IMG/VR virus record: IMGVR_UViG_3300037503_000005
Location: 1-55,645 of that record
Source of the DNA: a virus
Taxonomy: Duplodnaviria > Caudoviricetes
DNA length: 55,645 nt
Reading direction: 5' to 3' (one strand)
How positions within the stretch are numbered: position 1 is the stretch's first letter; each line of letters begins with the position of its first letter. The notes under the pieces are model-generated. The model saw only the letters and a program-made list of their open reading frames with translations. It did not search any database and had not been told where the DNA came from. The translations under genes were made by a program, and so were the position numbers. Shown here one piece after another: positions 3,980 to 55,645 of the stretch.

Positions 3980-4381
3980 CTAGCCCTCTGCCTCAATGCC
4001 AAGCCACTTAGCCACACTTTTTGGCGTCGGCACGTCCGGCTTGCGGAAATACATCTCAACCCCATCCCTCTGTAGCAGCGTGCTTTTCTCCACGTCCTCA
4101 CTGAAGGCCGTAAAAGCGGCCAGTCGCATCACATGGGGTCTGTCCATCTTCGACTCCCACAGTCTCACGGTTTGCGAGATGGTGAACCCGTCCATCCTCG
4201 GCAGCGCACAGTCAAAAATCAAAGCATCAAAAGGATCATCCTCAAGGTAAGCTTCCAAGATCATCTTCAGCGCCGCGAAAGCATTAGAGGCTAAGCGCGC
4301 ATCAAATCTTGACTTGCCGTACAGTGTACGGAGCAGCAGAGCCAACCCGTCGTCATCGTCAACTATCAAAATCTTCGTCAT
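3980..4381 (-). CDS. Stand-alone response-regulator receiver (CheY-like) domain
   Basis: KILIVDDD, IFDCALPRMDG (phosphoacceptor Asp), FTA, RKP; start at MTKIL. Confidence 0.9.
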   Translation of the reverse strand: MTKILIVDDDDGLALLLRTLYGKSRFDARLASNAFAALKMILEAYLEDDPFDALIFDCALPRMDGFTISQTVRLWESKMDRPHVMRLAAFTAFSEDVEKSTLLQRDGVEMYFRKPDVPTPKSVAKWLGIEAEG

Positions 4382-4781
4382 GGAGTGCGATGTCTTTGGG
4401 CGGATCAAATCTATGCCCGGTTGCCTCACTGTAGGCACGCTCAAGGGCGCTGTTGTACCGGCGTAAGCGGCGGCGGCTGGCGTGCAGTTCAAGGATGCTT
4501 TGGGTTGCGTTGTTGAGCTTGTCCTCATTTATCTTGCTCTGTTCCCGGTACTGGTCACGTTCCTTAATGGCCGTGTCCCTCTCCTTCTCTACTTCTGCAA
4601 TTTTCTCCTTACGTGTCTGCGCCAGATTCTGGGATTCCGTCACCGACTCTCTGAGCGCGACCGTATTCTTTCCCTTGATGACGTACCAGACGAACGCCGA
4701 GAGCGCCGCCAGTAAAGTAAGGGCGCTTGAAATATAACCGATGACTTTTGCGGTCTGCTCAACGTCCACATATGCAAGCAT
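4359..4781 (-). CDS. Membrane-anchored coiled-coil protein (lysis cassette)
   Basis: One N-terminal TM segment followed by an E/K/R-rich coiled coil. Confidence 0.7.
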   Translation of the reverse strand: MLAYVDVEQTAKVIGYISSALTLLAALSAFVWYVIKGKNTVALRESVTESQNLAQTRKEKIAEVEKERDTAIKERDQYREQSKINEDKLNNATQSILELHASRRRLRRYNSALERAYSEATGHRFDPPKDIALHDEDFDS

Positions 4782-12601: not shown

Positions 12602-13383
12602 AGTACCGGCGGCCTCTCTCTCTTGATTGTTCCAACACTCACGAAACTTTCCAGCTTTGAACCGTTGCGGCAAATCAGGGTTAAATCATCGTAGGCTTGC
12701 CCGCGTTCGTTCTGCCCTCTGTGGAAAGGGGAAGCGCGGCAACCGTCGATTGCCTTTTTAATCACTTCGACGGTGTAGCCCTCCCTGAGTCTGGCACGAA
12801 TCACCCTCTCCCTCTCCGGTGTTAGTCTGGCTTGGGGATGCTCCAGTGATTCTTGCCAGTAGGAAAAAACTTCCTGTACAGCCGTCGAGCCGTTAGGGCT
12901 CGACAATGTAGTTTCTTTCTTCTTGGGTTCTTTCCTAGAGGGTTCTTTCTTTATTTCATGTGGTGAACTTGTAACTTCACTGTATGAACTTGCAACTTCA
13001 TCCTGTGAACTTGCTAGTTCATGTGGTGAACTTGCAAACCGCTTGATATTGTCAGGCCAGATGTCCGTGAGAGTGATAACGTGGCGTGCTTTTCCGCCGT
13101 GAGGGTTCTCTTCTTCCTTGACGTGAATCAAGGATTTTCCGGCCAGTTCGATCCTTGCGGTGGTGAGCGCGTCTTTGGCCTTGCTGACCATTCCTGCGCT
13201 CATGCCCGTCTCTTTGGCTAGGGTGGCCGTAGACTTCCAGCACTCGCCCTGCTCGCCAGCCGTGCGCTTCAAGTGAAGGTATAAGGTCAGTTCAAACGGC
13301 GATAAGCCGAGCGTGAAAACCACGTTCGGAATCTCCGTGCGGTAACGTCTGCCGTCGCCCGCGTCTGAAACTGCCTGCCTCAA
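12598..13383 (-). CDS. Replication initiator, lambda O-like (N-terminal wHTH)
   Basis: LYLHL...CWKS..TLAKETGMS HTH, Ser-rich repeat linker, C-terminal LT.ER...I.ARL.EGY domain, internal iterons. Confidence 0.85.
   Translation of the reverse strand: MRQAVSDAGDGRRYRTEIPNVVFTLGLSPFELTLYLHLKRTAGEQGECWKSTATLAKETGMSAGMVSKAKDALTTARIELAGKSLIHVKEEENPHGGKARHVITLTDIWPDNIKRFASSPHELASSQDEVASSYSEVTSSPHEIKKEPSRKEPKKKETTLSSPNGSTAVQEVFSYWQESLEHPQARLTPERERVIRARLREGYTVEVIKKAIDGCRASPFHRGQNERGQAYDDLTLICRNGSKLESFVSVGTIKRERPPVL
12955..13038. repeat. Four 21-bp iterons (TTCA-N5-TGAACTTG), putative lytic origin
   Basis: TGAACTTG at 12964, 12985, 13006, 13027 inside the initiator gene, next to a T-rich tract. Confidence 0.8.
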
Positions 13384-13655
13384 CTCTGATACTCCCTGTG
13401 TAAAAAGCTAATGCCCCCGTACCACCGAGACGCGGCGACGAGTCCACAACAGCGACGAAGGGACGCGTTTAGCGCCTGTTGGTACGGAGGCATCAGCTTC
13501 CGCGCTACTAAGGATAGTATTCGGTTGTGAAAGCCGCCTTCCGTGTCTAAAGACACGAAAAACGCACCCCTTCGTCGCTATCCCCATGTTACCACAAATC
13601 CTCATCTCGTGGTTGAAAAACTTCACGCCACCACTCGTAATCCTCCGTGGTGATT

Positions 13656-14057
13656 TCATCCGGCCCGATCAATTCTTTCATCGCTATCTCCTAGTTTGTA
13701 CCCCGTTAGATTTGGGGTCGGTTCAACGTAAAACAACTTGCCCACGCCCCGCTCAGTTCCGGCCTCACAAAAGAATGCTAAATCCTCATCCGTGAGGTTG
13801 AACCACTCGCCATTGATACGCCTCGATTTGAAATAGTCATGAAAGTGCCACTCACATCTCGAGATATCATTCGTGCGTAATGCGTGTACGAGTTGCACCT
13901 TGAAGGGCAACACCAAGCCGAATTGTGACAGTCTGTTTTTGAGTACCTTTGCTTTGCCAATTTTGTAGCCATAGTCACTCCGCAGCAGGTAAACAAATCC
14001 GGGTGTTGGTGTTGCCCCAAGGTAATTACTGCGCCGTTTGCGCTTGTTTAGAAAGGG
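13656..14057 (-). CDS. GIY-YIG / T5orf172-like nuclease domain with no start codon of its own (probably reached by -1 frameshift)
   Basis: GFVYLL...YKIGK, E..FH..F...R.NGEWF.L; frame is open back to the CCCTTTC heptamer. Confidence 0.75.
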   Translation of the reverse strand, partial: PFLNKRKRRSNYLGATPTPGFVYLLRSDYGYKIGKAKVLKNRLSQFGLVLPFKVQLVHALRTNDISRCEWHFHDYFKSRRINGEWFNLTDEDLAFFCEAGTERGVGKLFYVEPTPNLTGYKLGDSDERIDRAG

Positions 14058-14473
14058 ACCACATCAGGCTCAGGCTGTCGGTTTCCCTGAGCTATGCCTC
14101 CGAATGGAGCTTGCCCCTGCGCCTGCTGGTTAATGGTTTGTGCGTTGTGTTGCTGGGGAAGTTCCGAGTCAACACGGATACAGTGCGTGGGCTTGCCTTG
14201 GTATTGTGTGATGTCCGGTTTGAGAGTGATGCGCGCGCCGACCCATGAAGTGTAGTCTTCAGTTCCGAGCAGCATGGCGATCATGCGGGCGTTGGTGGCG
14301 TTCAGAGCAAGGCGTTTGCCGCTGCCTTCCTGAAAGTCCAGTACGATCTTTTTGTCATCGCCTACCGATTCGACGGCAGAGGCTTTAATGGTGACATGGA
14401 CTTTCTGGCCTCTCAGGTCTTCAACTTTTAGAAAGCTTGACTTGGACTCGTAAATGTCATTGATGTTTGGCAT
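14048..14473 (-). CDS. Putative single-stranded DNA-binding protein
   Basis: FLK.EDL, L.LN.TN, W.G..ITL; Q-rich linker; acidic C-terminus ending DVVPF. Confidence 0.75.
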   Translation of the reverse strand: MPNINDIYESKSSFLKVEDLRGQKVHVTIKASAVESVGDDKKIVLDFQEGSGKRLALNATNARMIAMLLGTEDYTSWVGARITLKPDITQYQGKPTHCIRVDSELPQQHNAQTINQQAQGQAPFGGIAQGNRQPEPDVVPF

Positions 14474-14519
14474 TGTTCTTTCCTCTTTCTTGTTGTGGCT
14501 CGACTCGTCTACTGACCCG

Positions 14520-14918
14520 TCATCGCCATTGTGGTTGCGGTGCAGAAGCTAATTCGGCCTCTGCCTGATTTGTTCTCGCAAGTGTCTGGTAAGCTGATAG
14601 CGTGGCTTTCAGAGCGTGTACATATTCTCTTGCTGCTTCGCGCTCGGCTTCCGCGATGTGAGCCGCCAGACGTTCGGACTCACACACCTTGTCAACCTTC
14701 GCCGTTTTCTCTGGTATCGTTCCTTCGGCGTTCAGGTAAGCTATCGACTTTGCGCGCCTGTAGTTATTCTCGGCTTCAGCCCAATTTCTACCGGCTGTGC
14801 GCAGGTCATTAACAGCATCCAATAACTTGTTGGTCAGGTCTTTTAATTGATCGTTCAACTCGGTAAACGAGTAGATTTCAGATAGTGTCATTTCTCTCTT
14901 CTCCTCTACGCTTCCCAA
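14520..14918 (-). CDS. Coiled-coil protein, possibly UvsY-like recombination mediator
   Basis: All-helical, adjacent to SSB. Confidence 0.5.
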   Translation of the reverse strand: MGSVEEKREMTLSEIYSFTELNDQLKDLTNKLLDAVNDLRTAGRNWAEAENNYRRAKSIAYLNAEGTIPEKTAKVDKVCESERLAAHIAEAEREAAREYVHALKATLSAYQTLARTNQAEAELASAPQPQWR

Positions 14919-14943
14919 TCAGGGTTAAGCCGTGTGGCGCGGC

Positions 14944-15627
14944 TCACCCTGATAAGCGGGTGAGCCTTTCTTCGTTCGATTCAGAATGAAATAGGGGTAA
15001 AACCTTTTCAGGTTTCAGTTGGCGCGGAATATCGCAACCTATTCCTTGTGCACGCTTGATTCGTGCACGCGATACTTCACAGAAATAATCATCCGAATCA
15101 ATCAAGATAGAGTTGCGTTTCTCAATCTCTGCCGCGACTCCGGTCGTTCCAGAGCCGCAAGTAAAGTCAAGTATGGTGTCGCCTTCGTTTGAGTATGTGC
15201 GAATGAGATAGCGCAGGAGTTCAGTCGGCTTTTGATTCGGGTGAAACCTATCTGGAGAATCGTTGTCAACGCATGGAAAGTAAATAATGCTTTTGGGGTT
15301 GCGGGTTGTATCGCCCGCATTGTTCACAGCCTCACGATGAAAGCCGTAGACAGTTGAGCTATTCGCTTTCCGTCTTGCGAAGTTGACGGGCTCGTGTCCA
15401 GTTGTTTTCTGCGGGTTGTAAGTGATAGCGCCTCGACCAAAAACTAAGATTGATTCATGTATCTTCATTGGCTGAACAGGAGCGTTTAGAAAGTTGCTCG
15501 CCCTGTTCTTTTCCCAGATAACTTCATGCTTGAACTGCTGCAGGTTGCTGGCGACAAGTAAGGACGTGAAAGGCTGCGAAGCGAACAAGACTATAGCGCC
15601 GCCCTTTTTAACTAAAGCGTTCAGGCT
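14944..15627 (-). pseudogene. 5'-truncated DNA N4/N6 methyltransferase
   Basis: GAIVLFASQPF, HE.ILVF, HPNQKP, LDFTCGSGTT are present; N-terminal DPPY region and start are missing (in-frame TAA upstream). Confidence 0.75.
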
Positions 15628-15676
15628 CGTCCCGCCAGTGCATGATGCCGTCGATTAATCTCTCTTCGTAGTACAT
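15608..15676 (-). CDS. Short ORF MYYEERLIDGIMHWRDEPERFS (likely truncated small gene)
   Basis: AAAGGA RBS; overlaps the methyltransferase remnant out of frame. Confidence 0.45.
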   Translation of the reverse strand: MYYEERLIDGIMHWRDEPERFS

Positions 15677-15689
15677 CGCTGTCCTTTCA

Positions 15690-16560
15690 TCAGAGCCGCG
15701 TTACTGCGTGGGACTCAGGGATAACTCGCGTATGCATCCACAGGCCGTTCGCTTCCTCTAAATCATCCGTTGAATCCGCCGGCTCGTCCGCTACCCCGGC
15801 CAACCAAGAAGGGGGAAAACGGTTTGAAGGGCTGACACTATCCGCTCGCTTCCCACCGGAGTTAGTTGATATGGTCGTGGTTCAAATGTCCTATGGACTC
15901 CCACGATTACACAGTCAACATATCCGCCCTAGCCTCGTCCGATGTGCCAGCCCTTCAGATTGAGCCAGTAGCACGCCTACGCTTCGCTACCATCCCCCCG
16001 AACCGCACCACCTGTTCTATTGGGTCAGCATCAACCCCGGCGGCTTGTCAGAATGCAGATGCTTTCTTTTTCTGGCGGTCTAACGTGTGCGGCTGGCAAA
16101 GCAACGCGAGTTGTACACGTTGGGCTCTTTGCTTCCCCGCATGGCTCAAACTGTTAAAGAACGTAGGGCGTCCAGAGTGGATGCAATCTATACCCCCATG
16201 CGGATTGATCGGCTCGCATGTGTGGCCGTGGACGCCCCAAGCTTTGTCAAAGATGCGCTCCGATGGTGCGGGCTGTACCTAACTGCTGACTGGTGCAGGT
16301 CTGCATAAGCCCGCGTATGGACGCCCGGAGCAAGCGTGCCCGACCTCGCAGAGCATGGATAAACTCGGTGGTCATCCGTAGAGCCATGATGCTTTGGGCT
16401 GGCATCTCAATAATACGTTGTCAAAGAATCAGAAAGAGGCGGCATCCCCTCGACCCGTTGTGCGTCGAGGGGTTACGGGAGGAATTCCGCAAGAGTCTCG
16501 TCAAACTCTTCTGCCGCCCCTCGCCCTTGTGCCGACTTGCAGTTTGTGGCGACACAAGAT
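15690..16560 (-). ncRNA. Candidate large structured ncRNA or ncRNA array
   Basis: No credible ORF; adjacent closed stems; boxA-like motifs; lies downstream of the tRNA. Confidence 0.55.
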
Positions 16561-16568
16561 TTCAAAGA

Positions 16569-16644
16569 TGGTCGCGGGGGCTGGATTCGCACCAGCGTTC
16601 TTCGGGTTATGAGCCCGACGAGATGACTACTTCTCCACCCCGCT
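16569..16644 (-). tRNA. tRNA-Met(CAT), initiator type
   Basis: 76-nt cloverleaf, TCGGG-CTCATAA-CCCGA anticodon arm with 3 G-C pairs, 1:72 mismatch, encoded CCA. Confidence 0.92.
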
Positions 16645-16757
16645 AAAAGTGTTTGGGTCATAGCGCAGTCCGGCGAAACTATGACCCCAGTCAGGTTCAT
16701 AACTCCTGACCGTTTATGTGATGAATGCAAAGAACTCAAATTCTTAATCCGAGCGGT

Positions 16758-17012
16758 TTATGCACTCTCAAGCGCGGCTGTCTCGGATGCTGCCTCAACT
16801 TCAATTCCTGACCCTGCGCCACAAAGATAACCATTGATATACCACCCGAAACAGAGGGCGCGTTGAGCGTTATAGGCATCGCTCGGCAGCGTGCTTCTTA
16901 GAAAAGAAGATTGCTCGTCAAAGCGTTTATTGAATTCACCGCGTAGTGATTCTCTGAAAGCTATGTAATCATCCCCTGTCGTATCGGCAATAAGTGACTC
17001 CACTGATCCCAT
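16758..17012 (-). CDS. Hypothetical protein
   Basis: GAGGA RBS. Confidence 0.6.
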   Translation of the reverse strand: MGSVESLIADTTGDDYIAFRESLRGEFNKRFDEQSSFLRSTLPSDAYNAQRALCFGWYINGYLCGAGSGIEVEAASETAALESA

Positions 17013-17082
17013 TGGTTAGTCCTCTACTTTCGCGCCCTCAAATGATATTAAGCCAACTCGCCGCACCCCTCTCTAACGTGTG

Positions 17083-17700
17083 CTACAGACGCTCGTTTAC
17101 TTTCTGTCGCGCTAGATTCAAAGTATCCTCGACCTCCGCGAACTGTGATTGAAGATTCAAAGCCTTGAACTGCCGCTTCAGCCTTTCGAGCCTCTGGACA
17201 GCTTCACTAGCCTGACCGATGCTGATTAACAGATACGCGATGTTGTTCTCGGTCTCCATGCGGGCAACGAAGTCCCCCGCCAATTCGTGAAAACGTGATG
17301 CGTTTTTGTATTCGATGAGCGCTTTGTGGTGGAGTCCGAGCCTGAGATATGTAGTGGCAAGCCCGTTCGCGTACTTACCCTTCAAGGTGTTGCTGGATGT
17401 CTGCTCGAATAATGATTGCGATAGCGTATGAATAGAAAGGGCTGTCAGGTAGTTTCCCGCACCTCTCTCAATCATCGCCCAGTTGAAAGCCAAGATAAGA
17501 CGCAGGTCGTTGTCTTCGGTTTCGTTCAGGGCTTCGAGCGTGACGGCGCGCGCCTCATCAAGCTTGCCCGCACAGTAGAGTGCGACGCCCCGCTCCCGTT
17601 TGGCGCTTGCGCTATTGGGGATTCCCCCGTTTAGTTCTACAATGTTAATAGTTCTTTGCATCTTCACTGAAAGGAGAAAATCACATGAGACGATTAGCAC
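17083..17700 (-). CDS. Tetratricopeptide-repeat protein
   Basis: Repeated helical pairs: G.L.EA, GNY..AL, N.LA..Y..LG...AL..Y, NNIA.L....G...EA. Confidence 0.8.
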   Translation of the reverse strand: MLIVSCDFLLSVKMQRTINIVELNGGIPNSASAKRERGVALYCAGKLDEARAVTLEALNETEDNDLRLILAFNWAMIERGAGNYLTALSIHTLSQSLFEQTSSNTLKGKYANGLATTYLRLGLHHKALIEYKNASRFHELAGDFVARMETENNIAYLLISIGQASEAVQRLERLKRQFKALNLQSQFAEVEDTLNLARQKVNERL

Positions 17701-19193: not shown

Positions 19194-19245
19194 TAGGAAA
19201 TCTGCATACGTTGACAAAATTTAAATTCAAAGGTTGGATACGCTC

Positions 19246-19863
19246 ATGGCAGAGTTGACATCACAAGTCACTTTTAGGGTTTCCGACAAGATGTATCAGC
19301 GCATCGGAGAGATCGCTAAAGAAGAACGCAGAAAGCCCAACGAAGTAGCGCGGGCGCTTCTTGAGCGTGGGGAAGCGGCCTATACTTCCGACGGGCGTTT
19401 GTTTGAGCCAGGAGCGGGAGAGTCGCAACCGCGCGCCGTCGCGCTGAAGATTGTCGGGCGGGTTTCTGGCGGCAAGCCTATAGAACCGATAGAGCACCAC
19501 GAAGAAATTATGGTTTTGAGTACCGACATCGCTGGCATCAAAAAAGCCCGCGCCCTACGTGTCGTAGGCGATAGCATGCGCGACGCGAATGTAATGGACG
19601 GAGATATAATCTTAGTTGGAGATTGTGAGTCACCTATCAATAAGATTGTGGTTGCCTACATCGAAGAGAAAGGCACTTTAGGAGCTACGCTGAAATGGTG
19701 GAGACAAAAAGGCCAGAGCGTGACGCTGGAACCGGCCAACCCTGACTATAAGCCTTTCACCTATCCGGCAAAGAAACTTCGCTGGTACGGCGCTCTCGCG
19801 GGAGTTATCAGGACTATACCTCTCTCTGAAGTCGCCGGAAGGTCTGAAGCCGATGCCGCGTAA
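19246..19863 (+). CDS. Prophage repressor: RHH DNA-binding domain + LexA/S24 autopeptidase
   Basis: QVTFRVSD...IAKEERR..NEVARALL RHH; GRVSGG cleavage loop; GDSM (Ser) and TLK (Lys) dyad. Confidence 0.9.
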   Translation: MAELTSQVTFRVSDKMYQRIGEIAKEERRKPNEVARALLERGEAAYTSDGRLFEPGAGESQPRAVALKIVGRVSGGKPIEPIEHHEEIMVLSTDIAGIKKARALRVVGDSMRDANVMDGDIILVGDCESPINKIVVAYIEEKGTLGATLKWWRQKGQSVTLEPANPDYKPFTYPAKKLRWYGALAGVIRTIPLSEVAGRSEADAA

Positions 19864-20263
19864 TTGCTCATGGTGCGGTAAGCAGACGGAGCGAAAGTTG
19901 TGCGAGGGTTGTCTAATATTTGCGGCCAGCGTTCCTTCGCTTTCTCAAGACGTATTAGATGATCTTCCCTTTGGGGTAATTGAGCTAGACGAAGCGGGAA
20001 AGGTTCTCGGCTTTAATCACCATGAAGAGGAGCGGTCGCACCTGCGCGCATCTGAAGTTATAGGGAAGAATTTCTTCCGCGACATTGCGCCGTGCGCGGA
20101 GGTAAAAGAGTATCAAGGTAGATTTGAAGAGTTCCTGTTAAGTGATGAGCCTTCTATTCAATTTGATTTTGTTTATAGGTTGCCCCACGCGACGATCCCC
20201 ATACGGATAATGTTTGTCCGCGCCCACGGACACAACGTATTGGTAGTAAGTAGAGAAGTTTAG
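19853..20263 (+). CDS. Photoactive yellow protein homolog with N-terminal CxxC-CxxC zinc finger
   Basis: LDDLPFGVI.LD..G.V..FN..E......VIGKNFF.D.APC matches the PYP signature including Cys69 and Glu46. Confidence 0.88.
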   Translation: MPRNCSWCGKQTERKLCEGCLIFAASVPSLSQDVLDDLPFGVIELDEAGKVLGFNHHEEERSHLRASEVIGKNFFRDIAPCAEVKEYQGRFEEFLLSDEPSIQFDFVYRLPHATIPIRIMFVRAHGHNVLVVSREV

Positions 20264-28971: not shown

Positions 28972-29751
28972 TTAACCTAAATCGCCACTCTTTGACAACG
29001 CAGGGCTTCCCTTCCCTGCATGGGTGCAGCGGACTACTCCGGCGCTCGGATTCTTGGGGTCTGGATAAATGAAGCCTCCACTCTCGGCGCAGAGATCGCA
29101 TCTCGTGGTTTCCGTTTGCGGAGCATCTTCCCCTTTTAAGTTTTCTTTTCTCTTAACACTTTTATGGGTATCACCCGTGGAAGGGCTTGCGCTGGCACTA
29201 GGGCTTGCACCTGTGACAACCCTAAAGACTAAACCCTGCGCACGATCCTTGCCGTAAACGGCGCGCTCGACGAACACAAGGGCAGCGCGGTTCAACTCTT
29301 TATACGCGCGGCGCAGCATGCTCTCCGACTTCCCTATCCGATCTTCTAACCGCCCCCAGGTAATAGGGATAGTGAGATTCGAGCCACCTTCCCGGTAGCG
29401 GTTCAGATGGAAGTACAGGAGCTGTGCCAGAGGTGGTAATCCGCAGAGTCGAGCGTCAAAGAAATCATGGTTTACACGGCTGTCACCCTTACGGTATTCA
29501 GACTCTTGCCGGGGCTTGGGGCTGTCATATACGACAGGGCTTGCGCCCGTGCTAGGGCTTTCAGATGGAAGGGCTTGAGGGGCTAAAATGACAGGGCTTG
29601 CGTGGGTGGTAGGGCTTGCATCTGTGGAAGGGCTATCACCTGTGACAGGGCTTCCTAGGCCGAAACTCCTGAATACGTCTTCATTAGTTCCGCTGGCTGT
29701 TTCCTCGCCCGTCCTGATGCTGCCGTATTTCCTTTTGGGTTTCGTGCTCAC
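28972..29751 (-). CDS. Plasmid-type Rep / ParA-partner protein (wHTH + C-terminal zinc ribbon)
   Basis: Directly downstream of parA; LLYFHLNRYR...W..L...IGKS...LRR.YKEL wHTH; internal AGGGCTT repeats. Confidence 0.65.
   Translation of the reverse strand: MSTKPKRKYGSIRTGEETASGTNEDVFRSFGLGSPVTGDSPSTDASPTTHASPVILAPQALPSESPSTGASPVVYDSPKPRQESEYRKGDSRVNHDFFDARLCGLPPLAQLLYFHLNRYREGGSNLTIPITWGRLEDRIGKSESMLRRAYKELNRAALVFVERAVYGKDRAQGLVFRVVTGASPSASASPSTGDTHKSVKRKENLKGEDAPQTETTRCDLCAESGGFIYPDPKNPSAGVVRCTHAGKGSPALSKSGDLG
29182..29653. repeat. AGGGCT(T) repeats, mostly 18-bp spacing (putative plasmid origin or parS)
   Basis: Copies at 29182, 29200, 29536, 29554, 29570, 29593, 29611, 29629, 29647. Confidence 0.6.
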
Positions 29752-30484
29752 CGATGATCTCCTTGGCGGCTCTCAAATAGTCTACCGTTCCCGATGCCGC
29801 CGGATCGTACTGAGTGATTGGCTTTCGAGCGTTGAAAGCCTCCTTTAGCTTGACGTTCTTATTGATTGGGGAGAGCGTGTACGCCTCGAAATGGTTGCGT
29901 ATCTCTTCGTGAATGTCTCTGGCGATGTTTGTTCTTTCTAAAAACGTTGGGAGAGCGAAGACCTTCAAAGGGTGCTTGAGCTGAGTGATGATCGTGCGAA
30001 GCGTCCGCATCAGGTAGGGAATTGCTTCCCATGATTCGGGCGCGCACTCTATCGGAATCAGCACACTCTGAGAGGCCGCAAAAGCGTTGATATTTGCAAA
30101 GCCTAAGAATGTAGGACAGTCAATCAATGCATAGTCATAGCCTGATAGGTCTTCCAAGGCGCTGGCGAGCCTGTGCTCGCGGTTTAGAGCATTATTGAGG
30201 TCTAAGTCCAAGCTGGCTAATTTGAAGTTGCTAGGGGCTAAAGGAATGCCAGCAGGGGACTTCTGAATGACTTCCGAGAGCGGTTTACCATTCAGGAGGA
30301 CTTCATACATGGTCTCGCCGTCCGTGCCGTACCTGTCCAGAAGGAAGCGGGTAGCTGTGGCCTGGGGGTCTATGTCGAGCACTAAGACTTTACGGCCTTG
30401 GGTTTGGAGCGCAGCGGCCAGATTTACAGCCGTCGTGGTCTTACCTACCCCGCCTTTCTGGTTAGCTATAGCTATGGTCTTCAT
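29684..30484 (-). CDS. parA: ParA/Soj partition ATPase
   Basis: NQKGGVGKTT, DIDPQ, YDYALIDCP. Confidence 0.95.
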   Translation of the reverse strand: MKTIAIANQKGGVGKTTTAVNLAAALQTQGRKVLVLDIDPQATATRFLLDRYGTDGETMYEVLLNGKPLSEVIQKSPAGIPLAPSNFKLASLDLDLNNALNREHRLASALEDLSGYDYALIDCPTFLGFANINAFAASQSVLIPIECAPESWEAIPYLMRTLRTIITQLKHPLKVFALPTFLERTNIARDIHEEIRNHFEAYTLSPINKNVKLKEAFNARKPITQYDPAASGTVDYLRAAKEIIGEHETQKEIRQHQDGRGNSQRN

Positions 30485-55518: not shown

Positions 55519-55645
55519 GCTAACGCCGATAAGAAAATCACCCGCCTCAAAAACCTTTGGAGTTGCGCCTAACCGCAACGAGCCATCTTCTTGGGTAAAC
55601 GCAGCATCACCACCCATGAAGATTTGACCGCTCTTTGATATTGCG
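55519..55645. repeat. Terminal direct repeat (circular assembly overlap), copy 2
   Basis: Identical to 1-127. Confidence 0.97.

Follow-up and report, generated by a model that had tools for sequence, protein, structure and literature searches.

An ORF-free stretch with a tRNA-Met gene and discrete predicted hairpins beside a truncated methylase gene in a soil phage contig

In phages P4 and P1/P7, a small structured RNA cut from the leader of an early operon (CI and C4, respectively) pairs with repeated short complementary boxes. Both the P4 CI RNA and the P1/P7 C4 RNA are described as substrates that RNase P cleaves (PMC5499578). The tRNA region of phage T4 is reported to yield a pair of small RNAs (RNAC and RNAD) whose roles that account gives as unknown (PMC3014915), and GOLLD and ROOL are described as RNAs that often adjoin tRNAs and are often found in prophages (PMC5737381).

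The stretch of DNA that we compare with these systems contains a tRNA-Met gene and lies in a phage contig. It has in common with GOLLD and ROOL a tRNA neighbour, a viral setting and a large ORF-free span, but it gives no match to a covariance model, folds at background level over its whole length and carries elements on both strands. The likeness to T4 RNAC and RNAD is that structured elements other than tRNA lie beside a phage tRNA on the same strand, although the sequences are unrelated, T4 has a cluster of tRNAs rather than a single one, and the elements described here are predicted from sequence alone. The stretch may resemble the P4 CI and C4 loci in holding short repeated boxes together with their complement, a set that we estimate to be only mildly beyond chance, and it has tRNA-processing sites next door, whereas it has no Rfam match (E ≤ 10) and its boxes lie outside its most stable element.

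The window that we analysed is a complete IMG/VR viral contig of 55,645 bp (IMGVR_UViG_3300037503_000005). It has an exact terminal repeat of 127 bp, from which we read it as a circular assembly. The contig codes for a terminase, a primase-helicase, an RNase H, an HTH initiator-like protein and a ParA ATPase. Genes in the 1-19 kb part are encoded on the minus strand, pointing away from a plus-strand block whose first gene codes for a repressor; no tyrosine or serine recombinase was detectable in the six frames of the contig. Since ParA and an S24 repressor are present and recombinase genes were not detected, we infer that the phage is temperate and probably plasmid-borne.

The ORF-free stretch is part of the minus-strand early operon, where an 84-codon ORF (ORF84, which has no Pfam family) and a DNA methylase gene flank it; the replication genes (primase-helicase, RNase H and HTH initiator) follow downstream. 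Three DNA runs from soil or biocrust, each belonging to a different study, contain the stretch or pieces of it with zero differences, and one of these runs is possibly the source of the contig; there were no RNA runs among the listed holders. Given identical pieces in three runs, the stretch is at least not an assembly accident. The features discussed below are collected in Table 1.

Table 1. Coordinates of the features in and around the ORF-free stretch
Feature	Position	Strand	Remarks
5'-truncated N4/N6 DNA methylase remnant	14944-15654	minus	frame open from 15654; homology starts at ~15624
22-codon ORF	15608-15676	minus	AAAGGA box upstream; overlaps the open methylase frame out of frame
Long imperfect hairpin, ~135 nt	15822-15960	both	closed by the 14-bp stem
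Stem, 14 nt	15825-15838/15944-15957		13 Watson-Crick pairs and one G-U solely on the minus strand
Stem	15956-15967/16142-16153		
19-bp hairpin, 5 G-U pairs	16078-16125 (to 16134 with U-rich tail TCTTTGCTT)	plus only	
Stem	16166-16174/16229-16237		
TGGACGCCC, two copies	16229 and 16318		complement at 16166-16174
Boxes GGGCGUCCA, two copies, and complement	16166-16326 (boxes 16326-16318 and 16237-16229; complement 16174-16166)	minus	alternative pairings possible
Nested stems	16257-16331		
Four-way junction, 93 nt	16432-16524	minus	with the 10-bp hairpin, directly 3' of the tRNA; then U-rich tract UUUCUGAUUCUUU
Junction in the list of checked stems	16435-16521		
10-bp hairpin	16524-16560	minus	joins the tRNA 3' end to the four-way junction
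Hairpins	16526-16558, 16655-16687, 16690-16710		
tRNA-Met (CAU)	16569-16644	minus	ARAGORN; Rfam tRNA, 60 bits
Three hairpins	16645-16757	minus	from the ORF84 stop codon to the tRNA 5' end
ORF84	16758-17012	minus	borders the stretch on the operon-upstream side; codon score weakly positive
S24/LexA-type repressor	19234-19863	plus	first gene of the plus-strand block

Coding signal, known RNA families and folding

The stretch (15655-16757) was non-coding in every test that we ran. No frame reaches a positive codon-usage score over 15560-16700, and the flanking genes score 0.1-0.4; by this score, which is not very discriminating, the stretch is the longest low-coding run on the contig. Its longest ORFs, of 138, 117 and 73 codons, are all on the plus strand. 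For ORF138 and ORF117 there were zero homologues among 5.8 billion proteins, and the matches to ORF73 consisted of its own copy and one spurious repeat protein. An earlier note on this DNA, made from the letters of the sequence, had seen no convincing ORF here, and the codon usage, the extent of the low-coding run and the lack of homologues for ORF138 and ORF117 all bear this out.

Rfam carries models for GOLLD, ROOL, group I and group II introns, C4, RNAI and riboswitches. The Infernal/Rfam scan that the earlier note had put forward as a check was run with the 4227 models of Rfam 15, over the whole window at gathering scores and over 15400-17100 at E ≤ 10, and found nothing beyond the tRNA; three other rows, with E values from 0.69 to 3.7, are attributed to chance. 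The stretch is not a detectable member of GOLLD, ROOL, the introns, C4, RNAI, the riboswitches or other curated families.

The same note had described a large structured region, and had suggested an undescribed large non-coding RNA or an array of small RNAs. Over its length, the region folds much as other parts of the contig do. Folding of the 879 nt that separate the methylase from the tRNA gave z-scores of -2.23 on the minus strand and -1.59 on the plus strand (20 shuffles), and -1.61 when the minus strand was folded again (12 shuffles); equally low or lower values (-1.69, -2.48, -3.67 and -7.00) occurred in 4 of 19 other minus-strand windows of 879 nt. An unbiased scan covered 542 minus-strand windows of 150 nt, from position 1 to about 40.7 kb. 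The ten windows that fall within the region have a mean z of -0.18 (background -0.09, s.d. 1.17), and the region's running-mean z ranks 201st of 533. A scan of both strands in 120-nt windows puts 15600-16380 at background level, apart from a single hairpin peak on the plus strand.

About two thirds of the stretch lies at background structure. Significant structure clusters on the tRNA strand at 16380-16800, and there are two isolated peaks, one at 15826-15975 and the other, on the plus strand, at 16020-16139. Nor are strong hairpins confined to the ORF-free stretch; they characterise the operon in general, since the span 12751-16875 accounts for 14 of the 20 lowest-scoring 150-nt minus-strand windows, many of which fall in genes or in the gaps between them. 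Taken whole, the region is not more structured than the rest of the genome.

With the z-score of the 879 nt inside the spread of the genome and the 150-nt mean at background, the description as a large structured region does not hold up. The idea of an undescribed large RNA is likewise not supported, given the negative Rfam search, the folding within the genome spread and the position of the strongest elements on opposite strands; what survives of that suggestion is the array, to which four stable, strand-assigned elements lend some support. A comparison with shuffled controls, also proposed in the note, divides in the same way: four discrete elements beat their shuffles, whereas the whole region does no better than other windows.

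Discrete elements and repeated boxes

Every stem that had been listed is present at its coordinates. The four discrete elements folded better than all 200 of their shuffles; the z-scores of elements cut at their own stems are inflated, the boundaries having been picked after the stems were seen, and the unbiased windows back the same four structured places. For each element below we therefore give the z-score of the element as cut (inflated in this way) and, where there is one, that of an unbiased window.

The long imperfect hairpin is stable on either strand, at -58.0 kcal/mol (z -4.62) on the minus and -51.5 kcal/mol (z -5.35) on the plus strand, with 0 of 200 shuffles as good in both cases; the unbiased 150-nt window at 15826-15975 has a z of -3.60. 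The 19-bp hairpin has a marked strand preference: -29.9 kcal/mol and z -8.01 on the plus strand, compared with -10.9 kcal/mol and z -0.44 on the minus strand, and the unbiased 120-nt window at 16020-16139 has a plus-strand z of -4.39. With its U-rich tail, it is a candidate terminator or antisense-RNA end.

The most elaborate element is the four-way junction: an 11-bp stem (including 2 G-U pairs) closes it, its three arms measure 8, 4 and 9(+1) bp, and it has four G-U pairs overall. Its minus strand folds at -52.8 kcal/mol (z -5.76, with 0 of 200 shuffles as good) and its plus strand at -41.6 kcal/mol (z -3.51), and the window 16426-16575 has the most negative z of all 542 minus-strand windows. 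The mixed strand polarity that had been noticed earlier is real, the 16078-16125 hairpin favouring the plus strand and the junction the minus strand (-52.8 versus -41.6 kcal/mol). We considered whether the junction could be a canonical tRNA, but ARAGORN does not call it (default or 80% thresholds), and the Rfam tRNA model does not match it either (E ≤ 10). A terminator-like site is flagged at 16451-16434 on the minus strand. The U tract that follows the junction is interrupted, and shuffled sequence has about as many terminator-like sites (4.6 expected versus 4 found).

Between the junction and the tRNA, the 10-bp hairpin folds at -11.8 kcal/mol on the minus strand (z -2.33; plus-strand z -1.22). 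On the other side of the tRNA, the three hairpins that reach to the ORF84 stop codon fold at -35.5 kcal/mol (z -3.54; plus-strand z -1.98), and the unbiased window 16650-16769 has a minus-strand z of -5.38.

The remaining proposed domains are weaker. The closing stem of 15960-16149 is missing from the centroid structures, and the domains at 16148-16255 and 16255-16335, which bear the GGGCGUCCA boxes, are weakly stable on the minus strand (z -2.4 and -1.9, respectively). The earlier observation that TGGACGCCC occurs twice, so that alternative pairing is possible, was reproduced: both copies and the complement were found. The two 9-nt boxes and the complement fall within 160 nt, a triple for which we estimate a chance of ~0.007 per kb or ~0.4 genome-wide, and which is only mildly unlikely to be accidental. 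Another motif, (A/U)UCUUUGA(C/A)AA, is present in three copies on the minus strand, one each 3' of the tRNA, the junction and the 16257-16331 domain; by our estimate, this triple is not beyond chance.

The tRNA gene, the truncated methylase and the relatives

The tRNA that had been placed beside the stretch was confirmed as a tRNA-Met (CAU) by both ARAGORN and Rfam. Bacterial initiator tRNAs are distinguished by a mismatch at 1:72 and by three G-C pairs at the base of the anticodon stem. In the Infernal alignment, the 1:72 pair is non-standard (A opposite G, with no Watson-Crick pair) and the base of the anticodon stem reads GGG/CCC, flanking a CUCAUAA loop. Judged from these alignments, this tRNA-Met has initiator features, with the CAU anticodon, the 1:72 mismatch and the three G-C pairs all present. 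The CCA end is encoded in the gene. It is the only tRNA on the contig and is not part of a cluster: ARAGORN found no further tRNA or tmRNA at default and 80% thresholds, and five calls made with introns allowed at the 80% threshold were disregarded as implausible.

In a blastn search of 50,697 phage records, the matches were confined to the tRNA, at identities of up to 89.5%. The Pseudomonas phages D3 and BUCT566 and Vibrio phages carry a tRNA-Met that is 87-90% identical over the length of the tRNA. In those phages, unlike here, the gene sits in an intergenic gap of ~100-240 nt, and there is no similarity to our stretch beyond the tRNA itself.

On the other side of the stretch, the methylase matches Pfam PF01555 (N6_N4_Mtase) over profile positions 40-219 of 221 only. 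Its closest phage homologues are 46-48% identical to it; three full-length ones align from their residue 46, 80 or 55 onward, and the homologues have 45-79 extra N-terminal residues that include a DPPY motif. The 5' end of the gene is missing, and with it the first ~45 codons and the catalytic motif. The missing part was not found elsewhere in the contig by tblastn with the three full-length homologues at E values up to 100. A six-frame scan of the contig for DPPY-type motifs gave nine matches, none of them in a plausible ORF, and a six-frame search with the methylase profile at E ≤ 10 gave one match only.

Two runs support the sequence at the break: the source run, with a contig at 18.8x, and a second run, with a 339-nt contig (15592-15930) that is identical to it; an assembly error at this point is therefore unlikely. 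We reject a group I or group II intron splitting the methylase, there being no upstream exon and no intron core (Rfam, E ≤ 10). As to decayed genes, tblastn with the three full methylases and five proteins from the corresponding slot of a relative (L006, below) found nothing in the region at E < 0.3.

The primase-helicase has 2523 homologous proteins at E ≤ 1e-20 among the 8000 candidates scored, the best at 94, 75 and 73% identity, and homologues at 67-94% are present in the protein collection. The genomic context was compared in two relatives, L006 and L085, both of them distant. The L006 primase is 65% identical over its N-terminal half, and three neighbouring genes are syntenic (59%, 44% and 70%). 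Directly upstream of the o132 homologue, L006 has an intact methylase of a different subfamily (TDPPYG), and two reverse-strand ORFs lie farther upstream of the methylase; L006 has no tRNA. L085, a contig of 55,635 bp, has a primase that is 60% identical over its full length; its slot holds two intact methylases and several small ORFs, with no tRNA and no Rfam match. In these comparisons, what lies between the early regulators and the replication genes varies within this phage group, and relatives usually hold a methylase in that slot.

Searches for the region itself found nothing convincing. Neither blastn nor tblastx against 257 loci (2.7 Mb) produced anything resembling it, tblastx against 216 loci gave two weak matches, both in one locus (L144) and both with E 0.004, and a covariance model combining the hairpin and the junction gave two weak matches in the 257 loci (2.7 Mb), both without the arms. 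A 16-mer from the region had 29 matches in IMG/VR, about the number expected by chance, and none of them extends; one that lies near a tRNA-Met is inside an HNH ORF. A 21-mer and a 23-mer had 0 matches there. When IMG/VR was scanned with single proteins (the methylase, the TPR protein, the primase and P0004), no close relatives came up, and the alignment-based IMG/VR scans returned mostly distant helicase relatives among the matches listed.

An origin in host DNA was also considered. The region without the tRNA had 0 matches in 401 and 301 genomes from two bacterial phyla; in a third phylum, the region with the tRNA was matched in 274 of 301 genomes, and among the matches listed these covered the tRNA part only, at up to 88% identity. 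All three phyla are thinly sampled in this comparison, and none of our conclusions draws on three genomes of the third phylum that are flagged as unpublished. The sequence of the region therefore looks like a new one, an orphan with no homologue in any collection searched.

Possible origins and roles of the stretch

On balance, we lean towards a lineage-specific tRNA cassette with structured flanks, next to a non-coding spacer left by rearrangement, and not towards one RNA machine. The functional core would be the cassette with the initiator-type tRNA-Met, ~330 nt long (16432-16757) and on the same strand as its neighbours. If it is transcribed with them, its flanks may act in the processing, the stabilising and the (partial) termination of the tRNA transcript, and the junction RNA would perhaps be freed as a by-product when the tRNA ends are cut. 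A rearrangement would have introduced the cassette and cost the methylase its first ~45 codons. The ~750 nt at 15655-16430 would then be leftover spacer with two isolated strong hairpins, of which the plus-strand one probably stops or ends an antisense transcript.

Several observations are consistent with such a cassette. There is no coding signal, and the three longest ORFs are without homologues; significant structure gathers on the tRNA strand at 16380-16800, the rest is at background except for isolated peaks, and strong hairpins are general to the operon. The tRNA has initiator features, the methylase is truncated with its N-terminal part nowhere in the contig, L006 and L085 have intact methylases and no tRNA, and the gaps that hold the tRNA-Met of other phages are just ~100-240 nt long.

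Other observations fit the cassette less well. It is rare for a phage genome to retain 750 nt that serve no purpose. The four-way junction has far more elaboration than termination would require, and the U tract that follows it is interrupted, with terminator-like sites no more frequent than expected. The five wobble pairs of the plus-strand hairpin all favour one strand, which suggests a selected antisense RNA. Moreover, any timing of the rearrangement would be tentative, given two relatives with known context, both of them distant. If this ordinary reading is true, the locus would be one more phage tRNA cassette with a recombination scar, and the parts that can be demonstrated do belong to known kinds: a phage tRNA gene flanked by stem-loops, and the scar of a recombination event.

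The main alternative, which we hold to be rather unlikely, is an array of small regulatory RNAs on both strands that would control how far transcription from the early promoter of a plasmid prophage reads on into its replication genes. Following the logic of P4 CI and C4, the junction RNA would be cut from the operon transcript by tRNA-processing enzymes, termination would be set by alternative pairings between the GGGCGUCCA boxes and their complement, and the plus-strand hairpin RNA would be the antisense partner. The discrete elements are very stable and are assigned to strands by their G-U pairs, the two 9-nt boxes and the complement lie close together, and the position in the early operon, upstream of the replication genes, is suitable, as is the presence of ParA and an S24 repressor with no tyrosine or serine recombinase. 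There are also described precedents for the parts, in the cleavage of the P4 CI and C4 RNAs by RNase P (PMC5499578) and in the two small RNAs made from the T4 tRNA region (PMC3014915). However, no Rfam family matches at E ≤ 10 and no homologue was found in the collections searched. The 9-nt triple is only mildly unlikely and the box domains are weak (z -1.9 to -2.4), and the adjoining truncated methylase suggests a scar rather than a long-kept control region.

A bolder version joins the junction RNA, the 9-nt boxes and the plus-strand hairpin RNA into a new kind of switch, made of RNA only, that would gate the path from the early promoter to the replication genes; we think this distinctly unlikely. 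In that version, host tRNA-processing enzymes would release the regulator from the operon transcript, and the switch would be a functional analogue of P4 CI and P1 C4 RNA with an unrelated fold. Should the junction or the antisense hairpin be real RNAs, they would add to the very few phage regulatory RNAs that mature via tRNA processing, and would do so in a soil phage lineage without a cultured member.

It is very unlikely, in our judgement, that everything around a working tRNA is decayed or non-functional DNA (dead genes or a recombination scar) in which the hairpins have no role. The truncated methylase, the variation of the slot among relatives and the background folding of the whole region would all fit, but no protein remnant was detected with the methylase N-termini or the L006 slot proteins (E < 0.3), and four elements beat 200 of 200 shuffles, one of them being the most stable of 542 windows.

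An RNA-primed plasmid origin like that of ColE1, proposed purely by analogy, with a long structured pre-primer, a small antisense RNA from the opposite strand and cleavage by the phage RNase H, would suit the structured elements on both strands, the RNase H gene and the likely plasmid-prophage setting, but seems highly improbable, given that Rfam matches nothing besides the tRNA, that the phage has its own initiator-like HTH protein and primase-helicase, and that iterons or an AT-rich feature were not found in the region.

We give as little credence to a single large, ornate RNA of the GOLLD/ROOL type, co-transcribed with the tRNA. Such a reading could draw on the phage tRNA neighbour (as described for GOLLD and ROOL in PMC5737381), on ~0.9 kb that is free of ORFs and on long-range stems that abut one another; if the ordinary reading is true, the case serves mainly as a caution that hand-picked long-range stems in ORF-free DNA can mimic a large RNA even where unbiased folding statistics are at background. 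Against it, 0 of 4227 Rfam models match at E ≤ 10, the whole-length z-score is ordinary for this genome with two thirds of the stretch at background, the 15960-16149 closing stem is absent from the centroids, and the strongest internal hairpin folds on the opposite strand only.

Folding and repeated patterns in the early operon

Strong folding extends across the early operon: of the 20 most negative z-scores (folding energy relative to shuffled sequence) among 542 minus-strand windows of 150 nt, 14 fall in a 4.1-kb part of the operon at 12751-16875, and an 879-nt window beginning at 14300 has a z-score of -7.0. Three of the low-scoring 150-nt windows are listed in the table together with the other features.

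Features of the contig outside the main structured elements
Feature	Position	Strand	Details
Receiver-domain protein (response regulator), phage-encoded	3980-4528	-	E 3.5e-10
Low-z 150-nt window	13351-13500	-	z -4.0
Low-z 150-nt window	13876-14025	-	z -4.5
Low-z 150-nt window	14926-15075	-	z -5.0
Terminator-like site	14941-14966	+	9-bp G+C-rich hairpin, then TTTCTTCGTT
22-codon ORF	15608-15676	-	Shine-Dalgarno-like box; overlaps open methylase frame, out of frame
Further two-mismatch stem-arm matches (five)	17830, 20848, 29626, 49982, 53154
Photoactive yellow protein homologue	19853-20263	+	136 residues; PDB and Pfam matches
ParA-type ATPase region	28972-30484	-	AAA_31, E 9e-45

The 14-nt stem-arm pattern (15825/15944) of the ~135-nt hairpin at 15822-15960 recurs on the contig, with 7 matches in a two-mismatch search vs 1.35 expected, a count attained in none of 100 shuffles. 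A second pattern, (A/U)UCUUUGA(C/A)AA in the minus-strand reading, stands at 16562 behind the 3′ end of the tRNA-Met, at 16421 behind the four-way junction, and at 16247 behind the nested-stem domain at 16257-16331; by estimate, this threefold occurrence is not beyond chance.

Borders of the methylase gene

The DNA methylase gene (14944-15654, minus strand) is missing its first ~45 codons, including those for the DPPY motif, and the short ORF listed in the table overlaps its open frame. The terminator-like site sits exactly at the junction of this gene with the adjoining gene, o132, and is the second such plus-strand site within a minus-strand operon, the other being the candidate terminator at 16078-16134, a hairpin followed by a U-rich tail.

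The immunity region and a possible plasmid-prophage lifestyle

All 33 PDB matches of the photoactive yellow protein (PYP) homologue are to PYP or close derivatives (best E 1.8e-15), and Pfam finds a PAS domain (E 8.4e-10). The 5′ end of its gene overlaps the 3′ end of the gene for an S24/LexA-type repressor (19234-19863). For a phage known from soil and biocrust metagenomes, a light sensor within the immunity region would, if true, be unusual.

No tyrosine integrase or serine recombinase was detectable in six frames of the whole contig; taken together with the ParA-type ATPase and the S24 repressor, this gene content suggests that the phage is a plasmid prophage. The two ends of the contig carry an exact 127-bp direct repeat (1-127 = 55519-55645); we take this to be an overlap from circular assembly, which need not mean that the DNA itself is terminally redundant. 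Downstream of the ParA-type ATPase gene lies an unannotated ORF of 259 codons.
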